Source of the DNA: Candidatus Diapherotrites archaeon CG10_big_fil_rev_8_21_14_0_10_31_34
GTDB lineage: Archaea; Iainarchaeota; Iainarchaeia; Iainarchaeales; 1-14-0-10-31-34
Length of the DNA: 21,908 bases
Direction: 5' to 3'
NCBI GenBank assembly: GCA_002763225.1
Contig: PFAI01000009.1
Location: 4,228-26,135 of the forward strand
Below are positions 747 through 21,908 of this stretch, piece after piece. The translations under genes and the position numbers were made by a program. Within the stretch, counting starts at the first letter, position 1. Every line of letters starts with the position of its first letter. The notes beneath the pieces were generated by a model. The model ran no database searches and was not told the DNA's origin. It saw only the letters and a list, made by a program, of their open reading frames with translations.

Positions 747-3700
747 ATGGAAAAAGAAAACCAAGAAATTGAAGAAACAGAAGAACCAAGACCAATTGAA
801 GATGAAAGAGTAAAAAAAACAATTGTAAAAGAAGACATTGATATTTTTGATGAAGTGTTTGAAGGAAAAAAAGAAAAACACTCAGAAGAAGAAATAGAAA
901 ACAAAGTAATTCAAAAAGAAGAAACAGAAAAAGAAACAAACGAAGCAGAAGAAGAAATAAAAGGAACAAAAGAAACAGAAAAACTGATTTTAAAGAAAAA
1001 ATCCAGAAAAACCAGTGAAGAAAAAGAAGCAGAAGAAAATGAAGAAACTGAACAAACAGAAGAAGTTCAAGAAGAAAAAACTAAAACAAAAAAATCAAAA
1101 ACTGATTCTCTGACAAAAAAAAAGAAAGAAAAAAAGAAAGCAAAATCAAATTATGAAAAAAAAGAGTTAACAGAAAAAGAAAAAAGTTTGCTTGAAGAAA
1201 CAGAAAACGATGAACTAAATTTAGATGAAATGCCGGAAAGAACTGAAGTAAAAAGAACAATAATGGAAAACGCACTCAAAATGAGTGAAAAAGAATTCGA
1301 TGAATTTGATGAAGAAGAAATTGATGGAATAGAATATTATTCAGGAGACAAAAAATTTACTTTAGCAGAAGAACAGGCAAAAGAAGCAGCAACAATTTCA
1401 GGTTTTGAATTAAGTTTTTTAGAAAACGAGGAAACAGGAAATGCTTTTATTGGAAGAAAAAAAAGTGTTTTTGAAAAATATCAGGAAAAAGCATCATTAT
1501 TTATAGGAAAAGTAGATGAAGAAGAAAAAAACGGAAAAAATATTTTATTGGATTCATTAAATCCTCATGTGGTTTTTGTCTGCGGAGCAAGAGGTTCAGG
1601 AAAATGTGTTACAGGAGATACTTTAATAACATTAGAAAATGGAAAATGCATTGAAATTAAAGAATTGTACAGATACAATGAGCCTGTTTTTGGATTAAAT
1701 GAAAAACTAAAGATTCAGCCATTAAAAAAAGATGAATTCTTTGAAAGAGAAGTAGAAAAAATCCTTCAAGTAAAACTTAGAAGCGGGAAAGAAATTAAAT
1801 TGACTCCAGAACACCCTTTGCTTACAATTAATGGATGGAAACCAATACAAGAATTAAAAGAAAGGGCAAGGATTGCTACGCCAAGAAAAATCCCTGCATT
1901 TGGAAACAAACAGATGAAAGAAAACAAAGTAAAAATATTAGCTTATTTGATAGCTGAAGGCCATTTAGGAAACCAGTTTGTTTTGTTCACAAACGCCGAC
2001 AATAAAATAATGAACGAATTTAAAGAAAGTGTTTATGCATTTGACTCAAACCTGAAAATGCTTCCACACGGGAAATTTTCAGTAAGAGTTTCACAAATAA
2101 AAAAAGAAATGGATTTAAGCAATGTCGTCAGAAATGGGCAAGGGCAATTTACTTCCACAGGATATGTTGTTGCACAAAAAAGTTCTCTGATGAAATGGCT
2201 TGAAGAAATAGAATTATATGAAAAAAGAAGCCACAACAAATTTATTCCAGAAGAAATAATGGAATTAGAAAAAAAGCAAATCAGCATTTTCTTAAACAGA
2301 TTGTTTTCTTGTGACGGAACAATACATAAAATAAACAAAACCACAAACTGGCAAATTTCTGTCTGCACTGTTTCAGAAAAAATGTCAAAACAAATACACC
2401 ATCTATTATTGCGTTTTGGAATTTTATCAAAAATAAGACACAAAAAAACAAAATTTAATGGAAAAATAGGAAATGCATTTGAAATAATAATAAATGCAGA
2501 AAATGCATTAAAATTCATTCAAGAAATAGGTTTTTTTGGGGAAAAAAAAGAAAAACAAAAAATTGCATTAAAAGAAATGAAAGAAAAAAACAGGAACCCA
2601 AATGTTGATACAATCCCAAAAGAAATCTGGAAAGAATTCAAGCCAAAAAACTGGCATCAGATGGGAAGAGATTTTGGTTACAAACAAATAAAATCAATGT
2701 ATAATACAGTCAATTACGCGCCTTCAAGAGAAAAATTAAATAAAATGGCTGAAATTGAAGGAAACAAAAAAGTTCAAGAAATAGCAAACTCTGATATTTT
2801 CTGGGATGAGATAACTGAAATAAAAGAAATAAATGAAAAAACAAAAGTCTATGATATTAGTGTCCCTGAATTCCACAATTTTTTGGCTAATGACATAATA
2901 ATTCACAACTCATATGTTTTAGGAGTGTTAGCAGAAGAACTGGCTTTGAAAAACAAAGACATTGGAATGATTGTAATTGACCCGATTGGAGTATTTTGGT
3001 CAATGAGATTTCCAAACAAAGAACTAAACGAAGTAGCAAAATTAAGTGAATGGAATTTAATGCCTCAGGGACTGGAAAACATTAAAGTGTTTATTCCTGA
3101 AGGAATTAAATCAGAGGTTCCAAAAAACACTTTTGATGCAACTTTTTCAATTCAGCCTTCTCTTTTAACAGCAGAAGACTGGTGTCTGACTTTTGGAATG
3201 GAAAGATTTGGTCCGGCAGGATTGTTATTAAGCAAGGTATTAAAAAAATTAGAGCATGGATTTAAAGCAGAAGGAAAATATATTAAAGCAAAAAAAGGAA
3301 ATTTTTCTTTAAATGAAATAGTTTATTGTCTGGAAAAAGATGAAGAATTAAATTCAAGAGAAAGAGGATATAAACAGGATTCAATTCGTGCATTAGTTTC
3401 AAGACTGGAAGCAGCAAAAAGCTGGGGAATTTTCTCTGAAAAAGGAACTCCTTTAGGAGAATTAAGCAGGGAAAACCAGCTGACTATATTAGACACAAGC
3501 TTTTTGGAAGACGGGGTAACTGCATTAGTAATAGGAATAATTGCAAGAAGATTACTGGCTGCAAGAAAGATTTCAACAAGAAAAGAAGCAGCAAAAAAAT
3601 TCAAGAAAAGCCTGGATGAAATGCTTGAAATGGATATACCTCCTACCTGGCTGTTTATAGATGAAGCACACACTTTAATTCCATCAGGAAATGTAAATAC

Positions 3701-5135
3701 TCCTGCAACCTCTGCTTTAGTTGAATACGTAAAACAAGGAAGACGTCCAGGTTGTTCTTTAGTGTTTGCAACCCAACAGCCTTCAGCAATTGATACAAGA
3801 GTTTTATCCCAATTAGATATTTTGATTTCACATAAACTTGTTTTTGATGATGACATTAAAGCAATCTTCAAAAGAGTTCCTTCAATTGTTCCAGGAAAAT
3901 ACAAGAAAAGCAGTTTTATCAGAACTCTTTCAGTTGGAACAGCATTAGTTGCAGACAGAAGAGAAGAAACTTCAAGAGCATTTGTAATGAATATTCGCCC
4001 AAGAATGTCACAGCATGAAGGAAGAGACGCAGAAACAGCTGAAGCAAAAACCAGCATTTCAGAAAACGATGTATTAAAGTTGTCAGCTGAAATGATTTGG
4101 AGAAAAATACAGGAAGGCCCATTAGAAATGGATAAAGTAAATATTTTAGTTGATTCATTAAACGGAAAATACTCTGCAAAAGTAATGCTTTCATCTGTGT
4201 TAGATGAATTAGAAGAAAGAGGAGCAGTAATTCAGGCAGACAAAATTTTCATTAAAGGAAAAGAATTAATTGAAGAAGAAGAAGAAATGGAAACAGAAGA
4301 AGAAAGATATGAAAAAGAAGTGGAAAAAGGGTTAAGAGAACAGGATGAAATGAAAGAAAAAGGAATAACCGGAACAGGAATAAAAGAAATTGAAGAAACA
4401 GCAAAGCCATTAAAAGAATTAAGTTTAGCAATAAAAATAGATGAAGAAAGTATAAGAAAAATTGCAGACAAAAAAAGAAAGAAAAAAACACTTGGTTTTA
4501 TTGGAAGCGAAGAAAGAATTAAAGGAATAATACTGAATTTTGAGCCAATCTATAAAATAAAAGTAAATGATTTTGACTTGAAAAAAGAATTTGTTTCAGT
4601 TGAATGCTTTGTTAATGGTTTGACAGGAGAATTACTGCATTTTGACGGAAAACAATTCATTGAATCAAAAGGGTTTACTAAAACAAGTTCTTTAACCAAA
4701 GACGAATCACTTGTATTAAGGAATTTACTGCAGAAAAAAATGTTAAAACAAGTACTTGAAAAAAACCCTGAATTATCTGAAGAAAAAGCAAAAAAAATTG
4801 TTTCAAGCCTGGCAGAAAAAGGCTTTCTGAAAAAAGAAAAAAAAGAAGGAAAAATACAATACTCTTTAAATCAGGAAATGGATCTGCCTTCAAGCCTGAG
4901 AATGAAATTGATTAACTCTGTAAGCAATTGTTCTTTCACTGAAAATATGATTAATAATGCAGTAAAAGAAAAGTTTTCAATAGAAGAAATAAACTCAATG
5001 GCAAAAGGGTTATGGTCTAATTCAGTTGTAAAAAAAACAGAAAAAATCTTTCGCCCAGTTTACTACATAACTCTTGAGGATAATGGAAAAGAAAGACTTT
5101 TGAAAATTGACGGAACAACAGGACAGGAAATTTGA
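747..5135 (+). CDS. HerA/DUF87 (FtsK-HerA superfamily) P-loop ATPase, intein-containing, with acidic N-terminal extension and C-terminal wHTH/PepSY-like modules
   Basis: PHVVFVCGARGSGK|S Walker A (split by the intein), IVIDPIG, Walker B LFIDEAH, GRRPGCSLVFATQQPS typical of HerA-like ATPases. About 1027 aa after splicing. Confidence 0.85.
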   Translation: MEKENQEIEETEEPRPIEDERVKKTIVKEDIDIFDEVFEGKKEKHSEEEIENKVIQKEETEKETNEAEEEIKGTKETEKLILKKKSRKTSEEKEAEENEETEQTEEVQEEKTKTKKSKTDSLTKKKKEKKKAKSNYEKKELTEKEKSLLEETENDELNLDEMPERTEVKRTIMENALKMSEKEFDEFDEEEIDGIEYYSGDKKFTLAEEQAKEAATISGFELSFLENEETGNAFIGRKKSVFEKYQEKASLFIGKVDEEEKNGKNILLDSLNPHVVFVCGARGSGKCVTGDTLITLENGKCIEIKELYRYNEPVFGLNEKLKIQPLKKDEFFEREVEKILQVKLRSGKEIKLTPEHPLLTINGWKPIQELKERARIATPRKIPAFGNKQMKENKVKILAYLIAEGHLGNQFVLFTNADNKIMNEFKESVYAFDSNLKMLPHGKFSVRVSQIKKEMDLSNVVRNGQGQFTSTGYVVAQKSSLMKWLEEIELYEKRSHNKFIPEEIMELEKKQISIFLNRLFSCDGTIHKINKTTNWQISVCTVSEKMSKQIHHLLLRFGILSKIRHKKTKFNGKIGNAFEIIINAENALKFIQEIGFFGEKKEKQKIALKEMKEKNRNPNVDTIPKEIWKEFKPKNWHQMGRDFGYKQIKSMYNTVNYAPSREKLNKMAEIEGNKKVQEIANSDIFWDEITEIKEINEKTKVYDISVPEFHNFLANDIIIHNSYVLGVLAEELALKNKDIGMIVIDPIGVFWSMRFPNKELNEVAKLSEWNLMPQGLENIKVFIPEGIKSEVPKNTFDATFSIQPSLLTAEDWCLTFGMERFGPAGLLLSKVLKKLEHGFKAEGKYIKAKKGNFSLNEIVYCLEKDEELNSRERGYKQDSIRALVSRLEAAKSWGIFSEKGTPLGELSRENQLTILDTSFLEDGVTALVIGIIARRLLAARKISTRKEAAKKFKKSLDEMLEMDIPPTWLFIDEAHTLIPSGNVNTPATSALVEYVKQGRRPGCSLVFATQQPSAIDTRVLSQLDILISHKLVFDDDIKAIFKRVPSIVPGKYKKSSFIRTLSVGTALVADRREETSRAFVMNIRPRMSQHEGRDAETAEAKTSISENDVLKLSAEMIWRKIQEGPLEMDKVNILVDSLNGKYSAKVMLSSVLDELEERGAVIQADKIFIKGKELIEEEEEMETEEERYEKEVEKGLREQDEMKEKGITGTGIKEIEETAKPLKELSLAIKIDEESIRKIADKKRKKKTLGFIGSEERIKGIILNFEPIYKIKVNDFDLKKEFVSVECFVNGLTGELLHFDGKQFIESKGFTKTSSLTKDESLVLRNLLQKKMLKQVLEKNPELSEEKAKKIVSSLAEKGFLKKEKKEGKIQYSLNQEMDLPSSLRMKLINSVSNCSFTENMINNAVKEKFSIEEINSMAKGLWSNSVVKKTEKIFRPVYYITLEDNGKERLLKIDGTTGQEI
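1605..2909 (+). mobile_element. Intein with LAGLIDADG homing endonuclease (435 aa, residues 287-721)
   Basis: Block A CVTGDT after GSGK; block B LTPEHPLL; LAGLIDADG motifs ILAYLIAEGH and FLNRLFSCDG; blocks F/G VYDISVPEFHNFLANDIIIHN followed by +1 Ser. Removal restores GARGSGKSY. Confidence 0.95.
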
Positions 5136-5812: not shown

Positions 5813-7483
5813 TTATTTCACTGAATCAATTATTGCTTTAGCCAGTTTTACCGGGTCATGCCTTATTAAGTCAACTTTTTCCCATAAAACTCTTTTTTTA
5901 TCAGGGTCAATTGCTTCAATTAAATCAGTTCGGATTACTTTTGTTGCATTTAATTCGTTTTCATTCAAGTCATCTTTAACCAAAAAAGATTTTTCTTTTT
6001 CATATAAATCTAAAATTCTTTTGTCCGGAACAGTTGAATTCACTAAAACAAAATCAAGGAATTCCAATGGAAGAATTTCATTTAATGCATTCAAATAATC
6101 TGATGCCTTAAAATTTGGTGTCTGGTCAGGCTGGGTAACAATATTTAAAACAAAAACTTTTTTTGCCTTGGTTTTCCTTATTGCATCATTTAAATCGGAA
6201 ATTAAAAGATTTGGGGTAATGCTTGTATAAAAACTTCCAGGAGCCAAAACAACTAAATCTGCTTCTAATACTGCCTGAACTGCTTCAATACATGCTTTTG
6301 GTTCAGGAGACAAAAAAGTTTTCTTAATTTTTTTTCCTGCAAGTCTTACATTAAATTCTCCTTCAGCTTTTGTTCCGTCAACAAATTCAGCACACAAATT
6401 AACATCATCTAAAGTTGAAGGAACAACTTTTCCTTTGATTGCAAGAATTTTTGATACCTGCTTTAAAGCTAACTCAAAACTTCCTTCAAGCTTGGTTAAA
6501 GCTGCAATAAAAAGATTACCAAAAGAATGACCGTTTAATTCACTTTCACCAGAAAAACGGTATTGAAAAAGTTTTTTCATTAATTCTTCTGAATCACTTA
6601 AAGCCACAAGACAGTTTCTGATATCTCCTGGAGGAAGAATATGCAGTTCTTTTCTGATTTTTCCTGAACTCCTTCCGGAATCCATTACAGTTACAATTGC
6701 AGTAAGATTTGAAGTATAATTTTTTAAGCCATTCAAAAGAATTGGAAGACCTGTTCCGCCTCCAATTGCAACAATTTTTTGTTTTGATCCATTAGCTTTT
6801 TTTTCAAGAGAATTAATTGCATCAAATAAATCAGAGATTTTGTTGATCGAATAATCTGGTTCCTCTAAAATGTTTTTTGGCTTGACTTCAGAAAACCTTC
6901 CATGCAATAATCTGACTGAATTCATTCCAAGCATATTAGCTATCCTTATTTCTGAATGAATTCTGTCGCCGACAGAAACAACTTCTTTTGGCTTTAAATT
7001 AAATCTTTTTAACACTTCCGTGAAAAAATCTTCTTTTTCAGGGCCAGTCTCAACATCATGAATAAAGATTTCATCAAACAAATATTCAATTTTTAATAAT
7101 TCAATTTTTTTTTGCTGTCTTTTGGTTATTCCAGAAGTAACTAAAATTAATTTAATTTTTTTTTCTTTTAATGTTTCTAACAATTCTTTTGCTCCGGAAA
7201 ACAAATGAATTTCTTCAACTAAATCAGAATTATATGCTTCCAATGCTTTTTTTACTATTTCATCTTTATTTTTTTCTGAATATTTCTCAGAAATAATTTG
7301 AAAAACATTTGAAGTGGGATTTAATTCATTTAATTTTTTTTGTTCTTCAATTAATTCGTTTTCTGAAAGAGTTATTCCTGCTTTAACCATTGCTTTTGCT
7401 GCACGCTTTCTTGCATTATTTACCAAAAGGCCTGTACAGTCAAATAAAGTGTCATCCAAATCAAATATTACTGCTTTAATCAT
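5813..7483 (-). CDS. Fusion of HAD-superfamily hydrolase (subfamily IA) and YvcK/GlmR (UPF0052, CofD-related) domain
   Basis: N-half: IFDLDDTL, VTSG, VGDRIHSEI. C-half: IVAIGGGTGL, VTVMDSGRSSG, LPPGDIRNCLVALS, GHSFGNL, PGSFYTSITPNLL, IRHDP. One continuous frame. Likely start ATG 7483 (alternative GTG 7492). Confidence 0.9.
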   Translation of the reverse strand: MIKAVIFDLDDTLFDCTGLLVNNARKRAAKAMVKAGITLSENELIEEQKKLNELNPTSNVFQIISEKYSEKNKDEIVKKALEAYNSDLVEEIHLFSGAKELLETLKEKKIKLILVTSGITKRQQKKIELLKIEYLFDEIFIHDVETGPEKEDFFTEVLKRFNLKPKEVVSVGDRIHSEIRIANMLGMNSVRLLHGRFSEVKPKNILEEPDYSINKISDLFDAINSLEKKANGSKQKIVAIGGGTGLPILLNGLKNYTSNLTAIVTVMDSGRSSGKIRKELHILPPGDIRNCLVALSDSEELMKKLFQYRFSGESELNGHSFGNLFIAALTKLEGSFELALKQVSKILAIKGKVVPSTLDDVNLCAEFVDGTKAEGEFNVRLAGKKIKKTFLSPEPKACIEAVQAVLEADLVVLAPGSFYTSITPNLLISDLNDAIRKTKAKKVFVLNIVTQPDQTPNFKASDYLNALNEILPLEFLDFVLVNSTVPDKRILDLYEKEKSFLVKDDLNENELNATKVIRTDLIEAIDPDKKRVLWEKVDLIRHDPVKLAKAIIDSVK

Positions 7484-7517
7484 TTCAACCACACAATTTA
7501 AGCAAATTCATTTTCCA

Positions 7518-15957: not shown

Positions 15958-16776
15958 TTAGTTTTCAACAAGTTTTTCTATTTCTTTTGATGGGCCAAAA
16001 ATATTGATTGAAAAAGAAGTAATTTTGATTTGAATTGAAGAAAAATAGATTTTAATGCTTTCATTTTGAGGGTAATTCAGAGAAAAAGCAAAAGAAAAAA
16101 AATCTGAAAGATGCTCTTTTTTCAGGGAAAAATTTGGTTTCTTGGATTTAACTGAAAACTTTTCTGAAATTAAGTCAAAAACTGTTTCAGGGCATTCAAC
16201 AAAAAACTCATTTAAACCAAAAGAAGAAAAAAACAAAGAAATTTTTTTAACTGATGACCTGTCTTTTGGAAGAGAAACAGAATCATTGAAATTCAGTTTT
16301 TTTAGCGAATCAATCTGTTTTGACAGAATCTTTGAAAGATAAGTCAGATGTTTTATTTTAACATTTGCAAGAGAATTCATTTTATTTAAATCAGAAACAT
16401 AAAATAAAGCTGAAGTTCTTGCATCCCTTAACAAGTCTGGGTTATTTTTTGATTTTTCAATTACCAAATGCAGTTGTTCTACAATTGAATCCAGTTCATT
16501 GATTTTTTTTGGAGAAGAAATAGAAGTGTTTAATTTCATTAACAATTTGTTTTTCATTTCAAAAGAAATAGATGAATTTCCTTTGTCTGTAATGAAATAA
16601 AAGTTGTCTTTCTTTTTCAGCAAACCAAAAGAAACTGCATCTTTTAGTGTTCTGGAAAGAGAAGCACGGGCCGAATTGATTGAACCAAAATCTGAAGCAG
16701 TCTTTCCCAGCAGGGAATTATATGTTATTCCTGGAGACTGCTTAATCATTAACAAAATTCCATTTCTTGCAGTCAT
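15958..16776 (-). CDS. Hypothetical protein with N-terminal winged helix
   Basis: ILLMIKQSPGITYNSL...SLSRTLKDAVSFGLLKKKDNFYFITDKG. Likely start ATG 16776 rather than 16842. Confidence 0.65.
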   Translation of the reverse strand: MTARNGILLMIKQSPGITYNSLLGKTASDFGSINSARASLSRTLKDAVSFGLLKKKDNFYFITDKGNSSISFEMKNKLLMKLNTSISSPKKINELDSIVEQLHLVIEKSKNNPDLLRDARTSALFYVSDLNKMNSLANVKIKHLTYLSKILSKQIDSLKKLNFNDSVSLPKDRSSVKKISLFFSSFGLNEFFVECPETVFDLISEKFSVKSKKPNFSLKKEHLSDFFSFAFSLNYPQNESIKIYFSSIQIKITSFSINIFGPSKEIEKLVEN

Positions 16777-16876
16777 GTTAATTAAAAGGTTTTTGGAAAA
16801 TAAAAATGTTTTGGGGGAGAAATCAACAAAAAATCCATACAAAACAAATAAAAAGGAAAGATTCCTTTATATTAAA

Positions 16877-17659
16877 ATGATTAAATCTTTGATTGAATCA
16901 GTTTTGATGATATTGAAAAAACCTGTGGTATTGCTTGCAGGAATTGTATTTATTTTAATTGACTTTATTTTCAGGTATGTGGTTGAAGACCAGGCAATTG
17001 AAACAGTTTTCAGTTTTCTGAATTTTTCAAACTACCCGTTATTTGAACTGCAAAAAATGCCTTTTCAGTTAATTGCAAGTTACCCAAGCGAATTAATTTT
17101 TGTCGGATTATTTTTAATTATAAGTTCAGTTATTTCCACAATGATGTCTGTTTCGCTTGCAAACTATGTTTTTGAAAAAAACAAATCAATTACTTCTTCA
17201 ATAATGTTTTCAGTTAAAAACCTGATGAAAATAATTTTATTAGTATTGTTTTTTGGCTTGATTTTTGTTTTTTCTGCAATAGTTTTATGGATTGTGGCAT
17301 TGTTTGCTTTTGCAGCAGGATTTCTCGGAGCAATAATCTTGCTTTTAGTAATAGTTTTTATGGGATTTGTGTTACTGCATTTTGTTTTTGTTCCGGCATT
17401 AATCGGAAAAGGATTAAACATCAAAAAAGCATTCAAAGAAAGCTGGAATTTTTCAGGGAAAAACTTTTTTTCAGTAATATTGTTGTTAATCGGCATAGCA
17501 TTAATTGATTTTGTATTAAGCCAGATTTACATTATAATTTTAAACACAGATTTCGGAGAAAACGAATTAATGATTATAGTTGAAATGATTTTTACTTTAA
17601 TAATTTTAACTTATACTAACATAGTTTTTCCTTTATTCTATTTAAATAAAAGCAAGTGA
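16877..17659 (+). CDS. Multi-pass membrane protein of unknown function
   Basis: About six TM helices and a FVPALI...IKKAFKESW motif. Start moved to ATG 16877 because the ORF-track start overlaps the opposite-strand gene. Stop abuts smc. Confidence 0.7.
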   Translation: MIKSLIESVLMILKKPVVLLAGIVFILIDFIFRYVVEDQAIETVFSFLNFSNYPLFELQKMPFQLIASYPSELIFVGLFLIISSVISTMMSVSLANYVFEKNKSITSSIMFSVKNLMKIILLVLFFGLIFVFSAIVLWIVALFAFAAGFLGAIILLLVIVFMGFVLLHFVFVPALIGKGLNIKKAFKESWNFSGKNFFSVILLLIGIALIDFVLSQIYIIILNTDFGENELMIIVEMIFTLIILTYTNIVFPLFYLNKSK

Positions 17660-17664
17660 AAAAA

Positions 17665-20457
17665 ATGTCTTCAGTCAGAATCGGCAAACTAAGGTTAAAG
17701 AACTTCAAGTCTTTTAAACAGGCAGTTATTCCATTCAGCAAAGGTTTTACAACAATTGCCGGAAGCAATGGATCAGGCAAGAGCAACATTTTGGATGCAA
17801 TAATGTTTGTTTTGGGAATGACTTCACTGAAAATGATGAGAGCATCAAAGTTAGTGGATTTGGTTAATAATGAAGCAAAAGAAAGCTATGGATTAGTTGA
17901 AGTCGAATTAAACCAGCCAGACAAAAAATACCTGCTTTCAAGAACAATAGACAAACAAGGAAAATCAGTTTACAGGATTGACTCAAAAAGAGCCACATTA
18001 AATGAAACAATTTCTTTGCTGACTGAGTTAGGGGTCAGCGCAACAGGATATAATATTGTTGTGCAAGGAGACGTAACTAAAATAATTGAAATGAATCCAG
18101 GGCAGAGAAGAGAAATAATAGATGATTTGGCTGGATTAAGCGAATTTGACCACAAAAAAGATGAATCAATTAAAGAATTAGAAAAAGTAAACACTAAAAT
18201 AAAAGAAGTAAATATTGTGTTAAAAGAAAGAGAAACTTACTTGGAAGAACTGGAAAAAGAAAGAAAAGCCGCAATAGAATACCAAAACTTAAATAAAGAG
18301 CACAAGCAGGTTAAAGCAACAATTTTAAGAAAAGAAATAAAAAAAATCGAAGAAAACATGAAAGAACATAAAGGAAAAATAGATAAAATAAAAGAAAAAA
18401 TTGAATTAGCTCAAAAGAAAAGAGAAGAAATAGAAAAAGAAGAAAAAGAATTAACAGACAAAATAGAAGAAATCAACAACAAAATAATTGAAGCAAAAGA
18501 AAAAACTTATTCCGGAGTGGGAATGGAAATAGAAGAAACAAAATCAGAGAAAAAAATAACAGAAGAAAGGATTAACTCAAAAAAAGAGCAAATTAACAGG
18601 CTGAAAAACAGGATTCATTCAATCAACGAAAAACAGTTAAAAGAAAAAGAAAAACAGGAAAACCTGAAAAAAGAATTAGAAGAAATAAAAGAAAAAATTA
18701 ATAATGCTGAAAGAGAAGTAAAAGGAAAAGAAATAAAAGCAGAAGAAGAACAAAAAAGAATTGAAGAAATAAAAGAAAAAATAACTGAAATAGAACAGGA
18801 GTTAGAGAAAAAAAGCGCATTATTAGAAAGAGAAAAAGAAAGGTTTTACAGCAAAAAAAGCGAAGGAGAAAAACTGGAAAAAGAAATCAAAATGCATTCA
18901 GGTTTCCTGAAAGAAATCCAGGAAGATTTAAACAATCAGAAATTAAAGGAAAAAAGCGTTTCATTAAAAGCAACAGAAAAAAAATTAAAGGAAATGGAAA
19001 AAGAACTGGATGAAATAGAAAAAAATAATCCAAAAATAAAAGAAGAAATCGGCAGACTGAAAGTAATTAAAAACAAAATAGAAAAAGAAATCAAAGAAAT
19101 TCTGCTTACATTAGATGAATTAGGGAGCATGGAAAGAGAAGAAAAAATAATTAAAGAAAAAAACAAAGCAGAAAATTCATTAGAAGAAGCAGTAAAAGAA
19201 AAAGAAAAAATAAATGAATTGCTTGAAGGAATAAAAAACACAAGAGAAGAAACAAGAAAACAATTAAATGAATTCAAAGAAGAAATTAAAAGTGAAAGCA
19301 GGCTGATTCAGGAAGTTAATGCTGAAAAAGTTTTACTGGAAAAAATGAAATTAAAAAAAGAGTCAATTAAAGAAAATTTAAATACAAAAGAAGAAAACAA
19401 AACTGATTCAGGAACAGAAATAAATGAAATAGAAGAAGAAATACTTAAAACAGAAAAAACAATTGGTTTAGAAGAAGAAAAAATAACTGAAATAGAAAAA
19501 AAAATAAAGAATCTGACTATTGAACTGGAAAAACAAAACAAGCAAAGCCATTTATTTTATGAAGAAAAAGATAAAGTGAACAAAAAAATTGAAGAAATAA
19601 AAGAAAAAAAGCATAAAAATGACGCAAATATCTCAAAATTTTCAAGAGAAGAAAATGAAGTGAGAATTGATAACTCAAAAAATGAGGTAAGGATTGCTGA
19701 TTTAAGCGAGGAAATAAAAGGATTTGAAGAAATAGAATTAATTACAGGAAAAGAGTTAGGGGAATTAAAGGAAAGACTTGGAAGAATAGAAAAAAGGATT
19801 ACTGAATTAGGCGCAGTAAACATGAAAGCAATTGATTCTTTTGAAGGGCAAACAAAAGAATTAATTGAAATAAAAGAAAAATCAGAAAAACTTGACCAAG
19901 AAAGAATTGCAGTACTTGATATGATTGAAAAAATTGAGATTAAAAGGGCTACGGCTTTTATTGACTGCTTTAACCAGGTGAACGAGCATTTTAAGAAAAC
20001 ATTTTATTCTTTAGGAGAAAAAGAAGGAACACTGAAATTGACTGACGAAGCAGACATAAATAACTCTGGATTGTTAATTGAAGCAAAATATGACCAGGAA
20101 AAAATGATTAATATTGATTCAATGAGCGGAGGAGAAAAAACTTTAACTGCATTGGCATTTCTGTTTTCAATTCAGCTGTTCAGACCTGCTCCATTTTATA
20201 TTTTTGATGAAGCAGATGCAGCATTAGATAAAACTAATTCATTAAAGTTAAGCAAAATGATTGCAGAAGTATGCAGGAAAAGCCAGTTTATTGCAATAAC
20301 TCATAATGATTCACTGATAAAAGAATCTAACCAGATTATTGGAGTAACATTAAATGAACAAAAAAGTTCTGTAATTGGATTAAAATTAAAAGAAAAAATT
20401 GAACAGGAAAATTTGGAAGAAAAAAAAGAACCAGCAGAATCAATTCAGACAAGCTGA
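17665..20457 (+). CDS. smc: Chromosome segregation protein Smc, short form without a recognisable hinge
   Basis: NFKSF, GSNGSGKSNILDA, MRA, VVQGDV, LGAVNMKAI, signature MSGGEK, PFYIFDEADAALD, QFIAITHN. About 930 aa. ATG 17665 (alternative GTG 17656). Confidence 0.9.
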   Translation: MSSVRIGKLRLKNFKSFKQAVIPFSKGFTTIAGSNGSGKSNILDAIMFVLGMTSLKMMRASKLVDLVNNEAKESYGLVEVELNQPDKKYLLSRTIDKQGKSVYRIDSKRATLNETISLLTELGVSATGYNIVVQGDVTKIIEMNPGQRREIIDDLAGLSEFDHKKDESIKELEKVNTKIKEVNIVLKERETYLEELEKERKAAIEYQNLNKEHKQVKATILRKEIKKIEENMKEHKGKIDKIKEKIELAQKKREEIEKEEKELTDKIEEINNKIIEAKEKTYSGVGMEIEETKSEKKITEERINSKKEQINRLKNRIHSINEKQLKEKEKQENLKKELEEIKEKINNAEREVKGKEIKAEEEQKRIEEIKEKITEIEQELEKKSALLEREKERFYSKKSEGEKLEKEIKMHSGFLKEIQEDLNNQKLKEKSVSLKATEKKLKEMEKELDEIEKNNPKIKEEIGRLKVIKNKIEKEIKEILLTLDELGSMEREEKIIKEKNKAENSLEEAVKEKEKINELLEGIKNTREETRKQLNEFKEEIKSESRLIQEVNAEKVLLEKMKLKKESIKENLNTKEENKTDSGTEINEIEEEILKTEKTIGLEEEKITEIEKKIKNLTIELEKQNKQSHLFYEEKDKVNKKIEEIKEKKHKNDANISKFSREENEVRIDNSKNEVRIADLSEEIKGFEEIELITGKELGELKERLGRIEKRITELGAVNMKAIDSFEGQTKELIEIKEKSEKLDQERIAVLDMIEKIEIKRATAFIDCFNQVNEHFKKTFYSLGEKEGTLKLTDEADINNSGLLIEAKYDQEKMINIDSMSGGEKTLTALAFLFSIQLFRPAPFYIFDEADAALDKTNSLKLSKMIAEVCRKSQFIAITHNDSLIKESNQIIGVTLNEQKSSVIGLKLKEKIEQENLEEKKEPAESIQTS

Positions 20458-20751: not shown

Positions 20752-21908
20752 ATGGCTAAAAAAATTCATTTAATTTCAGTTTTGTTTTTTTTAATTTTAT
20801 TTAATTCAGTTTTTGGCTTACCTGTAAGCAGTTGCAGTCAAACTTTAAGCAGTAATGGAACTTTATATGAGTTAACTGGAAATATTTCAAGTTCTTCTGG
20901 TTGTCTGACTATTTCTGAAAACAACATTGTTTTAGACTGTCAAAATCATTCAATTACTCATTCAACCGGAACAAGAGGTTCTTGAGTTTATGTTTCAGGA
21001 AATAATGTGGAAGTAAAAAATTGTATAATTAATGATGGGACTGCTCCTGGTCCTGGAGTAGGAGATGATTGGAGAGCAGGAATAAGTGTTGATGGAGACT
21101 ATGCTCATTTGCATCATAATACAATTTCAGTTCAAGGTTATTCTGGCAGAGGAATTGTTACTTCAAGACAAAGTGAATTAAATATAATTAATGACAATAC
21201 AATTACTGGAAATGCAGACCAAATCAGAAGTTTATGGATAGTGCGTTCTGCAGAAGTTTTTAATAACACTATTTCTGTTACTGGTTGTAATGGAATTGTT
21301 GATTTAGGAACAGAATATGGACAGTATTATCCTGAAAGTGTTTTCAATATTTATGATAATACTTTTAATCCAACAAAAGTTGGTTGTCCTTCTGGAGGCT
21401 CTAGATCTTGGGGGGTTTCAATTCCAATTAATGCTGATTTTTACAATAATATTGTTAATGGAATAGATTTAGATGAATATCCAAACGGAGGGACATTATC
21501 AACAGTTAATGTTGGGAGTAACAGCAAAATCCATGATAATGAAATTAATATTGATGGCTGGAATGCAAGAGGAATTTATTTTGAAGAAAACCCTCCTACA
21601 GAAAATGTTGAAATATATGGTAATACAGTATTATCTTATGACACTCATGCTGATGATTCTGATGGAAGTCCTTTAAGAGTCAGATCAGGATTAAACATTA
21701 GTATTCATGACAATGTCTTTAAGTCAGTTTATAACACTAAAACTGCAATGGTTTTTGGTGCTTCTCCTGCAATGCGTGTTACAGGAGAAATTTATAACAA
21801 TACATTTAGTGGACGAATAGGAATATTTTTTTATGACCAGACAATTGAAGGACCTGACATCCATCATAATACTATTTATTCAACTTACCATAAAATTCGA
21901 GTAAATTA
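20752..21908 (+). pseudogene. Secreted right-handed parallel beta-helix (PbH1/NosD-like) surface protein interrupted by one in-frame TGA; runs off the window
   Basis: Signal peptide MAKKIHLISVLFFLILFNSVFG, then CLTISENNIVLDCQNHSI, TGA at 20983-20985. The same frame stays open to 21908 with repeated I.xNxI motifs (HHNTIS, NDNTIT, FNNTIS, HDNEIN, YGNTV, YNNTF). Confidence 0.85.

Follow-up and report, generated by a model that had tools for sequence, protein, structure and literature searches.

An Iainarchaeales Smc with neither hinge nor zinc hook, and the range of Smc apices in its order

The 21,908-nucleotide stretch analyzed here (the window; contig PFAI01000009.1, positions 4,228 to 26,135, of the Iainarchaeales genome Candidatus Diapherotrites archaeon CG10_big_fil_rev_8_21_14_0_10_31_34) carries an smc gene whose product is a genuine Smc-type orthologue without the hinge domain of its family and without the zinc hook of its relatives. 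This hookless Smc was confirmed as real, lineage-wide and under purifying selection, and structure prediction gives the arm a bare helix-turn-helix tip near residue 458. The wider reading that we offer, tentatively and at a little under an even chance, is that in Iainarchaeales a hook replaced the hinge and several lineages then dropped the hook, leaving a kleisin-bound condensin with either a new hairpin clasp or no closed apex.

Identification of the protein as an Smc

The gene lies in a window sequence that contains no N. Its parts are as follows, with residues counted from GTG 17656:

17665..20457, + strand: smc gene, intact frame, 930 amino acids (aa) from ATG 17665 or 933 aa from GTG 17656
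17674..18150, + strand: N-terminal half of the ATPase head, with Walker A (nt 17761), MRA (17836) and Q-loop (18064)
18151..18927, + strand: N-terminal coiled-coil strand (neck, joint break near residues 282-288, arm), with predicted helices 161-284 and 289-423
18928..19122, + strand: predicted apical hairpin module, residues 425-489, in place of hinge or hook; candidate dimerization surface (AlphaFold2 model, hydrophobicity, dN/dS)
19123..19800, + strand: C-terminal coiled-coil strand, joint and neck (from models; SKNEV anchor at residue 675)
19801..20388, + strand: C-terminal half of the ATPase head, with LGAVN, signature (nt 20122), Walker B/D-loop (20185) and H-loop (20296)

The ATG at 17665 agrees with the starts in close relatives. 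An earlier note made from the letters alone (the original prediction) had described Smc-type heads, and all of its motifs were found as placed, together with Walker A, signature, Walker B/D-loop and H-loop. The N-terminal half carries the Walker A motif GSNGSGKS at residue 36, MRA at 61, QGDV at 137 and DDLAGL at 156; the C-terminal half carries LGAVN at 718, the signature MSGGEK at 823, PAPFYIFDEADAALD at 844 and ITHN at 881. A conserved joint of the KTYSG type is present in the N-terminal strand.

The top NCBIfam model was TIGR02169 (SMC_prok_A) at 532 bits, under its cut-off of 729. The top solved relatives were Pyrococcus Smc heads (5xei, E 4.9e-90), with Rad50 well behind (8.9e-17), and Foldseek also matched the predicted model to 5xei. 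Three other identities were considered and rejected: Rad50 (models at 90 bits or less, Smc-type heads, no CxxC), the ASRP proteins ClsN and Sph (NF045487 at 110 bits versus a cut-off of 300, no CxxC) and RecN (TIGR00634 at 57 bits versus 408, with an arm of 556 aa where that of RecN is short). Orthology to hinged Smcs was indicated by tree position, locus and single copy.

This genome, which is 81% complete, has one detected Smc-type gene, and profile searches of it found neither a second Smc nor a free-standing hinge; one weak match to the hinge family PF06470 on contig C45 (12.9 bits) fell below the cut-off. Contig C24 encodes a distinct Rad50, which has a CPVC hook, and scpA and scpB lie about 4 kb apart on contig C22, not adjacent to smc. 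Among the eight other genomes of the family, the Smc N-terminal head matched once per genome in 8/8 and the hinge in 0/8; ScpA is present in this genome and in 8/8 relatives, and ScpB in 9/9 genomes of the family, this one included. Across the 215 genomes of the phylum survey (196 of this order and 19 of other orders), the Smc N-terminal head was found in 194 and ScpA likewise in 194, including 58/58 near-complete ones.

Absence of hinge and hook, and the predicted tip

The stretch from DDLAGL to LGAVN measures 556 aa and is 45% Glu plus Lys, with no Cys, no Trp and a single Pro; on inspection it holds no GX6GX3GG motif. This bears out the earlier description of an E/K-rich arm of roughly 555 residues lacking cysteine, hinge motif and globular segment, as do two AlphaFold2 models in which the arm is entirely helical. 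Pfam searches matched SMC_N, and neither SMC_hinge (PF06470) nor Rad50_zn_hook matched at E<=1, the outcome that had been expected for the hinge; as a control, one hinged and one hooked relative did match their domains. A hidden Markov model (HMM) of the hinge built from 13 hinged relatives gave 1.5 bits or less for all 18 hookless proteins scored, but it also misses the globular inserts of two families described below, and thus by itself cannot exclude a very degenerate hinge remnant. With the HMM of the Rad50 hook, 18/18 hookless Smcs scored 7.2 bits or less.

The form of the predicted tip depended on the alignment supplied to AlphaFold2. From an alignment of hookless proteins only, the model shows a helix at 425-457, a turn at 458 and a helix at 459-489, with a predicted local distance difference test (pLDDT) score of 76-81 at the tip and breaks at 424 and 490-491 that flank the hairpin. 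From a mixed alignment, the turn is at 454-459 and pLDDT there is 48-64. The sole proline of the arm (residue 459, nt 19030) had been noted as lying near the fold-back; it is variable among relatives, the arm of homologue P0002 having no Pro.

The best-conserved hydrophobic stretch of the mid-arm covers residues 461-490, and the apical module is more hydrophobic than the remaining arm in 17/17 hookless proteins (0.26 vs 0.25 in 48 hooked ones). A two-copy complex prediction of residues 365-560 from a 21-row hookless alignment gave a score of 0.01 (mark 0.42) and was uninformative for or against pairing.

Conservation and selection

An assembly deletion or a degenerate one-off allele would also yield a short Smc, and we regard this as extremely improbable. 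All 7/7 complete relatives of the family are 921-935 aa long with a head-to-head arm of 549-552 aa, no CxxC and 48-78% identity, which refutes such a deletion or one-off; in the eighth relative (G005), smc is split across two contigs. A homologue search with the arm only (residues 260-600) matched 4 close relatives. Relatives that carry a name belong to Ca. Diapherotrites/Iainarchaeum. Additionally, the intact frame and the signs of purifying selection speak against a degenerate allele. The ratio of nonsynonymous to synonymous substitution (dN/dS), taken for seven regions between this smc and 4 congeners, was below 0.45 in all regions of all 4 pairs: 0.07-0.14 in the N-terminal and 0.05-0.11 in the C-terminal half of the head, 0.14-0.43 in neck and arms (0.15-0.43 in the arm flanking the apex) and 0.13-0.19 in the apex, values that are rough because synonymous sites are near saturation (synonymous differences per site, pS, 0.35-0.67), which weakens this part of the case. 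The loss is therefore lineage-wide, and what had been named beforehand as contrary evidence, a hinge or globular apex or close relatives of full length, did not appear in the HMMs, models and relatives covered here.

Apex states in the order and the phylum

Matches to PF06470 were obtained in 19/215 genomes of the phylum, namely in 17/19 genomes of other orders and in 2/196 of this order. One of the latter is G014; the other, G152, is positive through a 1.6-kb contig. That hinge match is partial (L149 on contig C241, 1633 bases) and G152's own Smc is hooked; mis-binning is possible.

When the top 120 homologues of this Smc were classified by apex, 100 had a single CxxC near the middle of the arm, 20 had none (one of these a fragment) and none had a hinge domain. 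Smcs were also typed in 74 genomes of the order, picked for family spread rather than at random and with three families left out. A CxxC hook resembling that of Rad50 was present in 59/74 (21 families), neither hinge nor hook in 11/74 (families f1, f5, f17, f22 and f26), a small non-coil insert in 3/74 (f2 and f31) and a hinge in 1/74 (f7). The hookless gene of f5 contains a run of N; its complete sister protein P0092 concurs. The hinge was thus not simply deleted, as could be supposed from its absence alone, since most of the order has a Rad50-like hook in its place; the absence of both from the present protein stands. The deficit of about 250 aa relative to a usual Smc was supported: compared with most hinged relatives, of which 11/13 have 1115-1178 aa (one intein discounted), the protein is short by ~185-250 aa.

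The inserts of f2 (L127, L128, L282-L286) and f31 (L126, L287-L294) are apical, conserved and non-coil, of ~100 aa and 40-60 aa, respectively, and lack CxxC. By eye they look in part like a hinge, and were first considered as shrunken hinges; that reading has no statistical support from the hinge HMM or from hhalign (probability of at most 0.2%). Several relatives have Smc frames of 1500-1780 aa in which a large insert occupies part of the N-terminal head (L124, L147, L227, L228; P0050, P0095, P0101). Pfam assigned intein and LAGLIDADG domains to the Smcs P0050, P0095 and P0101, and the insert of L124 breaks Walker A.

Origin of the hook and order of events

With a profile built from 32 Iainarchaeales Rad50 hooks, 67/67 hooked Smcs reached 16.8-56.4 bits, whereas none of 13 hinged Smcs exceeded 9.7. 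The Smc-hook and Rad50-hook profiles agree in register over 20 residues on either side of CxxC, with column correlations of 0.59 and 0.61 at zero shift and at most 0.31 at other shifts. The simplest reading of this likeness is that the Smc hook was captured from Rad50. Rad50 itself keeps its hook in 31/31 Rad50s typed, including those of genomes with a hookless Smc. The Rad50 frames of the order (loci L196-L226) fall mostly into two length classes, ~680-720 and 775-805 aa.

The order of events was addressed with a tree of Smc heads (55 of 102 rows, Smcs of this phylum only, rooted on hinged members) and a quick tree of RpoA1. On the head tree the 14 hookless rows require 8 changes, at least 2 of which are forced by strongly supported branches, and a single hookless clade was rejected by the approximately unbiased (AU) test (p 9.2e-5). 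On the RpoA1 tree, the hinge-bearing G014 is the first branch in the order. The hooks of G013 and G021, which branch deeply, show the standard geometry. The hook lies 207-210 residues past the joint in most full-length hooked proteins, which favors one gain followed by several losses. Altogether, a history from hinge to hook to neither, with the hook lost more than once, is likely.

Several observations weigh against this history in its clean form. The monophyly of the 32 hooked rows was likewise rejected (p 4.8e-6); hooked and hookless rows are interleaved within one strongly supported clade; and the RpoA1 tree, when reduced to its strongly supported branches, is compatible with one hookless origin. 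The hookless tips of different branches also look somewhat alike, two tests being weakly positive, though a stricter anchored test was unconvincing: 0/7, 2/7, 3/8 and 5/8 hookless tips versus 1, 4, 1 and 8 of 48 hooked ones fell in the top three ranks. An apex moved by recombination, or a hookless intermediate, is possible.

Arm length

Bacillus Smc is described as functional only when the length of its arm fits a period of ~91 residues, whether it carries the hinge or an engineered Rad50 hook (PMC5344682). From joint to anchor, hookless Smcs measure 389-407 aa (17 proteins from separate branches) versus 460-469 (~467) for most hooked ones, so that each strand of the present Smc falls ~38 residues short of its hooked counterpart. 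For tips that touched end to end in the manner of hooks, the hookless arm would be off the period. Should the 65-residue hairpin instead be the clasp, the arm proper would be ~70 residues shorter and nearer the short viable class, which is speculation on our part.

Natural short-hook Smcs measure 114/168 and 116/170 residues where the usual hooked form has 208/259, so that each strand lacks about one period; values of 104/168 and 98/150 were obtained for others. Short-hook proteins are 772-825 aa long, ~90-110 residues per strand shorter and near the Bacillus period, and belong to families f4, f24 and f30 (loci L132, L134, L151, L152 and L179; proteins P0027, P0032, P0037, P0066 and P0094).

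Proposed pairing of the arms and alternative explanations

With neither hinge nor hook and a predicted bare hairpin at the tip, the arms likely pair in a way that is undescribed. We consider it an even bet that the hookless Smc is a chromosome-folding ring closed by kleisin, with apical hairpins that pack on each other, and arm contacts, holding its arms together. ScpA would close the ring, the two arms would be held by helix-on-helix packing of the predicted 65-residue tip hairpins, and contacts along the arms would add to this pairing. ScpA binding, ring formation, loop extrusion and dimerization at the tip are putative properties of the hookless Smc. In favor of pairing at the tip, the module lies between predicted kinks, is under constraint and slightly exceeds the rest of the arm in hydrophobicity. 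It is also supported by work in Bacillus, where dimerization at the apex is reported as essential and the fold of the apex as not (PMC5344682), and by the interchange of hook and hinge in Rad50 as well (PMC6969161). Contacts between the arms (the rod) are reported to help a hinge-less Bacillus Smc to dimerize (PMC5526789).

Set against hairpin pairing are the small size of the module's hydrophobic excess (~0.05) and the fit of most conserved positions to an ordinary heptad core, a tip length that differs by up to ~18 residues across hookless proteins, and a shortening of ~38 aa that lies in a non-functional gap in Bacillus terms (PMC5344682). Additionally, a partner may have been missed in a genome that is 81% complete, and archaeal ScpB need not bind ScpA, according to PMC7055376.

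The main rival, which we judge unlikely though worth serious consideration, is an open apex: the tips would not pair stably, and two Smc molecules would be joined only through ATP-driven engagement of the heads, the ScpA bridge and weak rod contacts, as a clamp or short-lived ring able to capture DNA with no closed hinge. Such an apex fits the failure to detect a known dimerization domain in the hookless Smc and the apparent loss of the hook several times over, as with a dispensable part. An arm off the 91-residue period of hinged, hooked and short-hooked forms is likewise what is expected if tip geometry is irrelevant, and the rod contacts of the hinge-less Bacillus protein count for it as well. 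The lethality reported for Bacillus when hinge dimerization is lost (PMC5344682) argues the other way, as do hookless lengths that cluster at 389-407 rather than drifting and a constraint on the apex that at least equals that on the arm. It appears improbable that in small genomes the complex has given up loop extrusion for a simpler task, such as bridging DNA, repair or serving as a segregation scaffold, with the demands on the apex relaxed and the apex degenerating stepwise; the several apex states of the order (hinge, small globular inserts, hook, short hook, none) and genomes of ~1 Mb are in keeping with it, but heads, joint and ScpA/ScpB are all kept, and the short hooks are shortened by about one superhelical period, a constraint linked in Bacillus to chromosome loading. 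We give still less weight to a separate protein that clamps the tips, such as the product of the membrane-protein gene directly upstream of smc or an unrecognized small protein. That gene stands beside smc in 55/80 stretches compared, including 11/11 hookless ones, many hooked ones and no hinged one, and was not found with this query, for which there was no positive control, in 5 hinge- or insert-bearing genomes. Hooked Smcs need no such clamp and yet have the gene, no neighbor is specific to hookless loci among the 80 stretches, and the free-standing hinge that could have served was not found in this genome.

If pairing of the hairpins or an open apex is correct, the hinge, its DNA-binding surface and the arm-length period would all be dispensable for the SMC motor. 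Models of SMC action disagree on the role of the hinge, which is taken as a dimer clasp, a DNA entry gate or a DNA-binding foot, and within a single archaeal order naturally occurring Smcs under selection can be compared that bear a hinge, a zinc hook or a short hook, or lack both, with ScpA present throughout. The tip could be a new dimerization module, and the proposal is directly testable, since the 65-residue apex can be transferred to the chimera and the arm-length assay already established in Bacillus subtilis.

Comparison with known systems

Compared with prokaryotic Smc-ScpA(B) (Pyrococcus 5xei, 5xns and 4i99), the protein shares the head motifs, the neck and joint, a long antiparallel arm and the single copy, with ScpA and ScpB in the genome and the locus of the hinged Smcs of sister orders. 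It differs in lacking PF06470, in its shorter length, in its score below the TIGR02169 cut-off and in its predicted bare hairpin.

RecN has neither hinge nor hook and dimerizes through its coiled-coil apex; it differs in being bacterial, with short arms, other heads and no kleisin. Rad50/SbcC and the ASRP proteins ClsN and Sph are also SMC-superfamily ATPases without a hinge, but have a zinc hook and other heads, and ASRP/ClsN/Sph are described as forming another clade (PMC9389158). The Bacillus subtilis Smc(Zh) chimera (Burmann et al. 2017, PMC5344682) likewise joins Smc heads and arms without a hinge, and the hooked Iainarchaeales Smcs are its natural counterpart, with a similar length period; the present Smc differs from both in having no CxxC and in its shorter strands.

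The closest parallel is an SMC clade without hinge and CXXC in marine Actinomycetes (Sussfeld et al. 2025, PMC12153180), which by its description shares SMC-type heads, has neither hinge nor zinc hook and apparently replaces the regular SMC. That clade, compared by description only, is bacterial and comes from a metagenomic gene cluster, and the part of the report consulted names no kleisin and no hook-bearing intermediate. The present Smc nests among archaeal hooked and hinged Smcs, from which we infer an independent origin. The hinge-less, CXXC-less kind of SMC is therefore already in print, and it is the archaeal series of hinge, hook and hookless forms that is new as far as our literature search shows. 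That search, which covered main texts and not supplements, returned no hinge-less or hook-bearing Smc described for Iainarchaeota/DPANN, and the word 'hook' is absent from the main texts, as seen in part, of PMC8665677, PMC11344861 and bioRxiv 2024.01.07.573240.

Locus and neighboring genes

Genes of a single family lie downstream of Smcs of all three kinds, hinged, hooked and hookless (49/80 stretches, 7/11 hookless), which places all three at one locus. The smc of this genome has a different downstream gene. The upstream neighbor discussed above is as follows:

16877..17659, + strand: membrane-protein gene (~260 aa), directly upstream of smc, probably co-transcribed

By language-model features its product is UPF0259- or DUF7847-like, in unnamed clusters. 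The divergent gene at 15958-16842 (- strand) matched no Pfam family over the cut-off and occurs near smc in 34/80 stretches. Further from smc, the window encodes a HerA-like ATPase of 1462 aa (747-5135, + strand), whose N-terminus is long and acidic and which contains an intein bearing a LAGLIDADG domain, and a 559-aa protein (5813-7492, - strand) whose motifs suggest a fusion of a HAD hydrolase and a YvcK/CofD-like domain. An Asn/Gly-rich open frame with no Pfam match runs off the end of the window (21007-21908, + strand), and gives the impression of possibly being a beta-helix surface protein.

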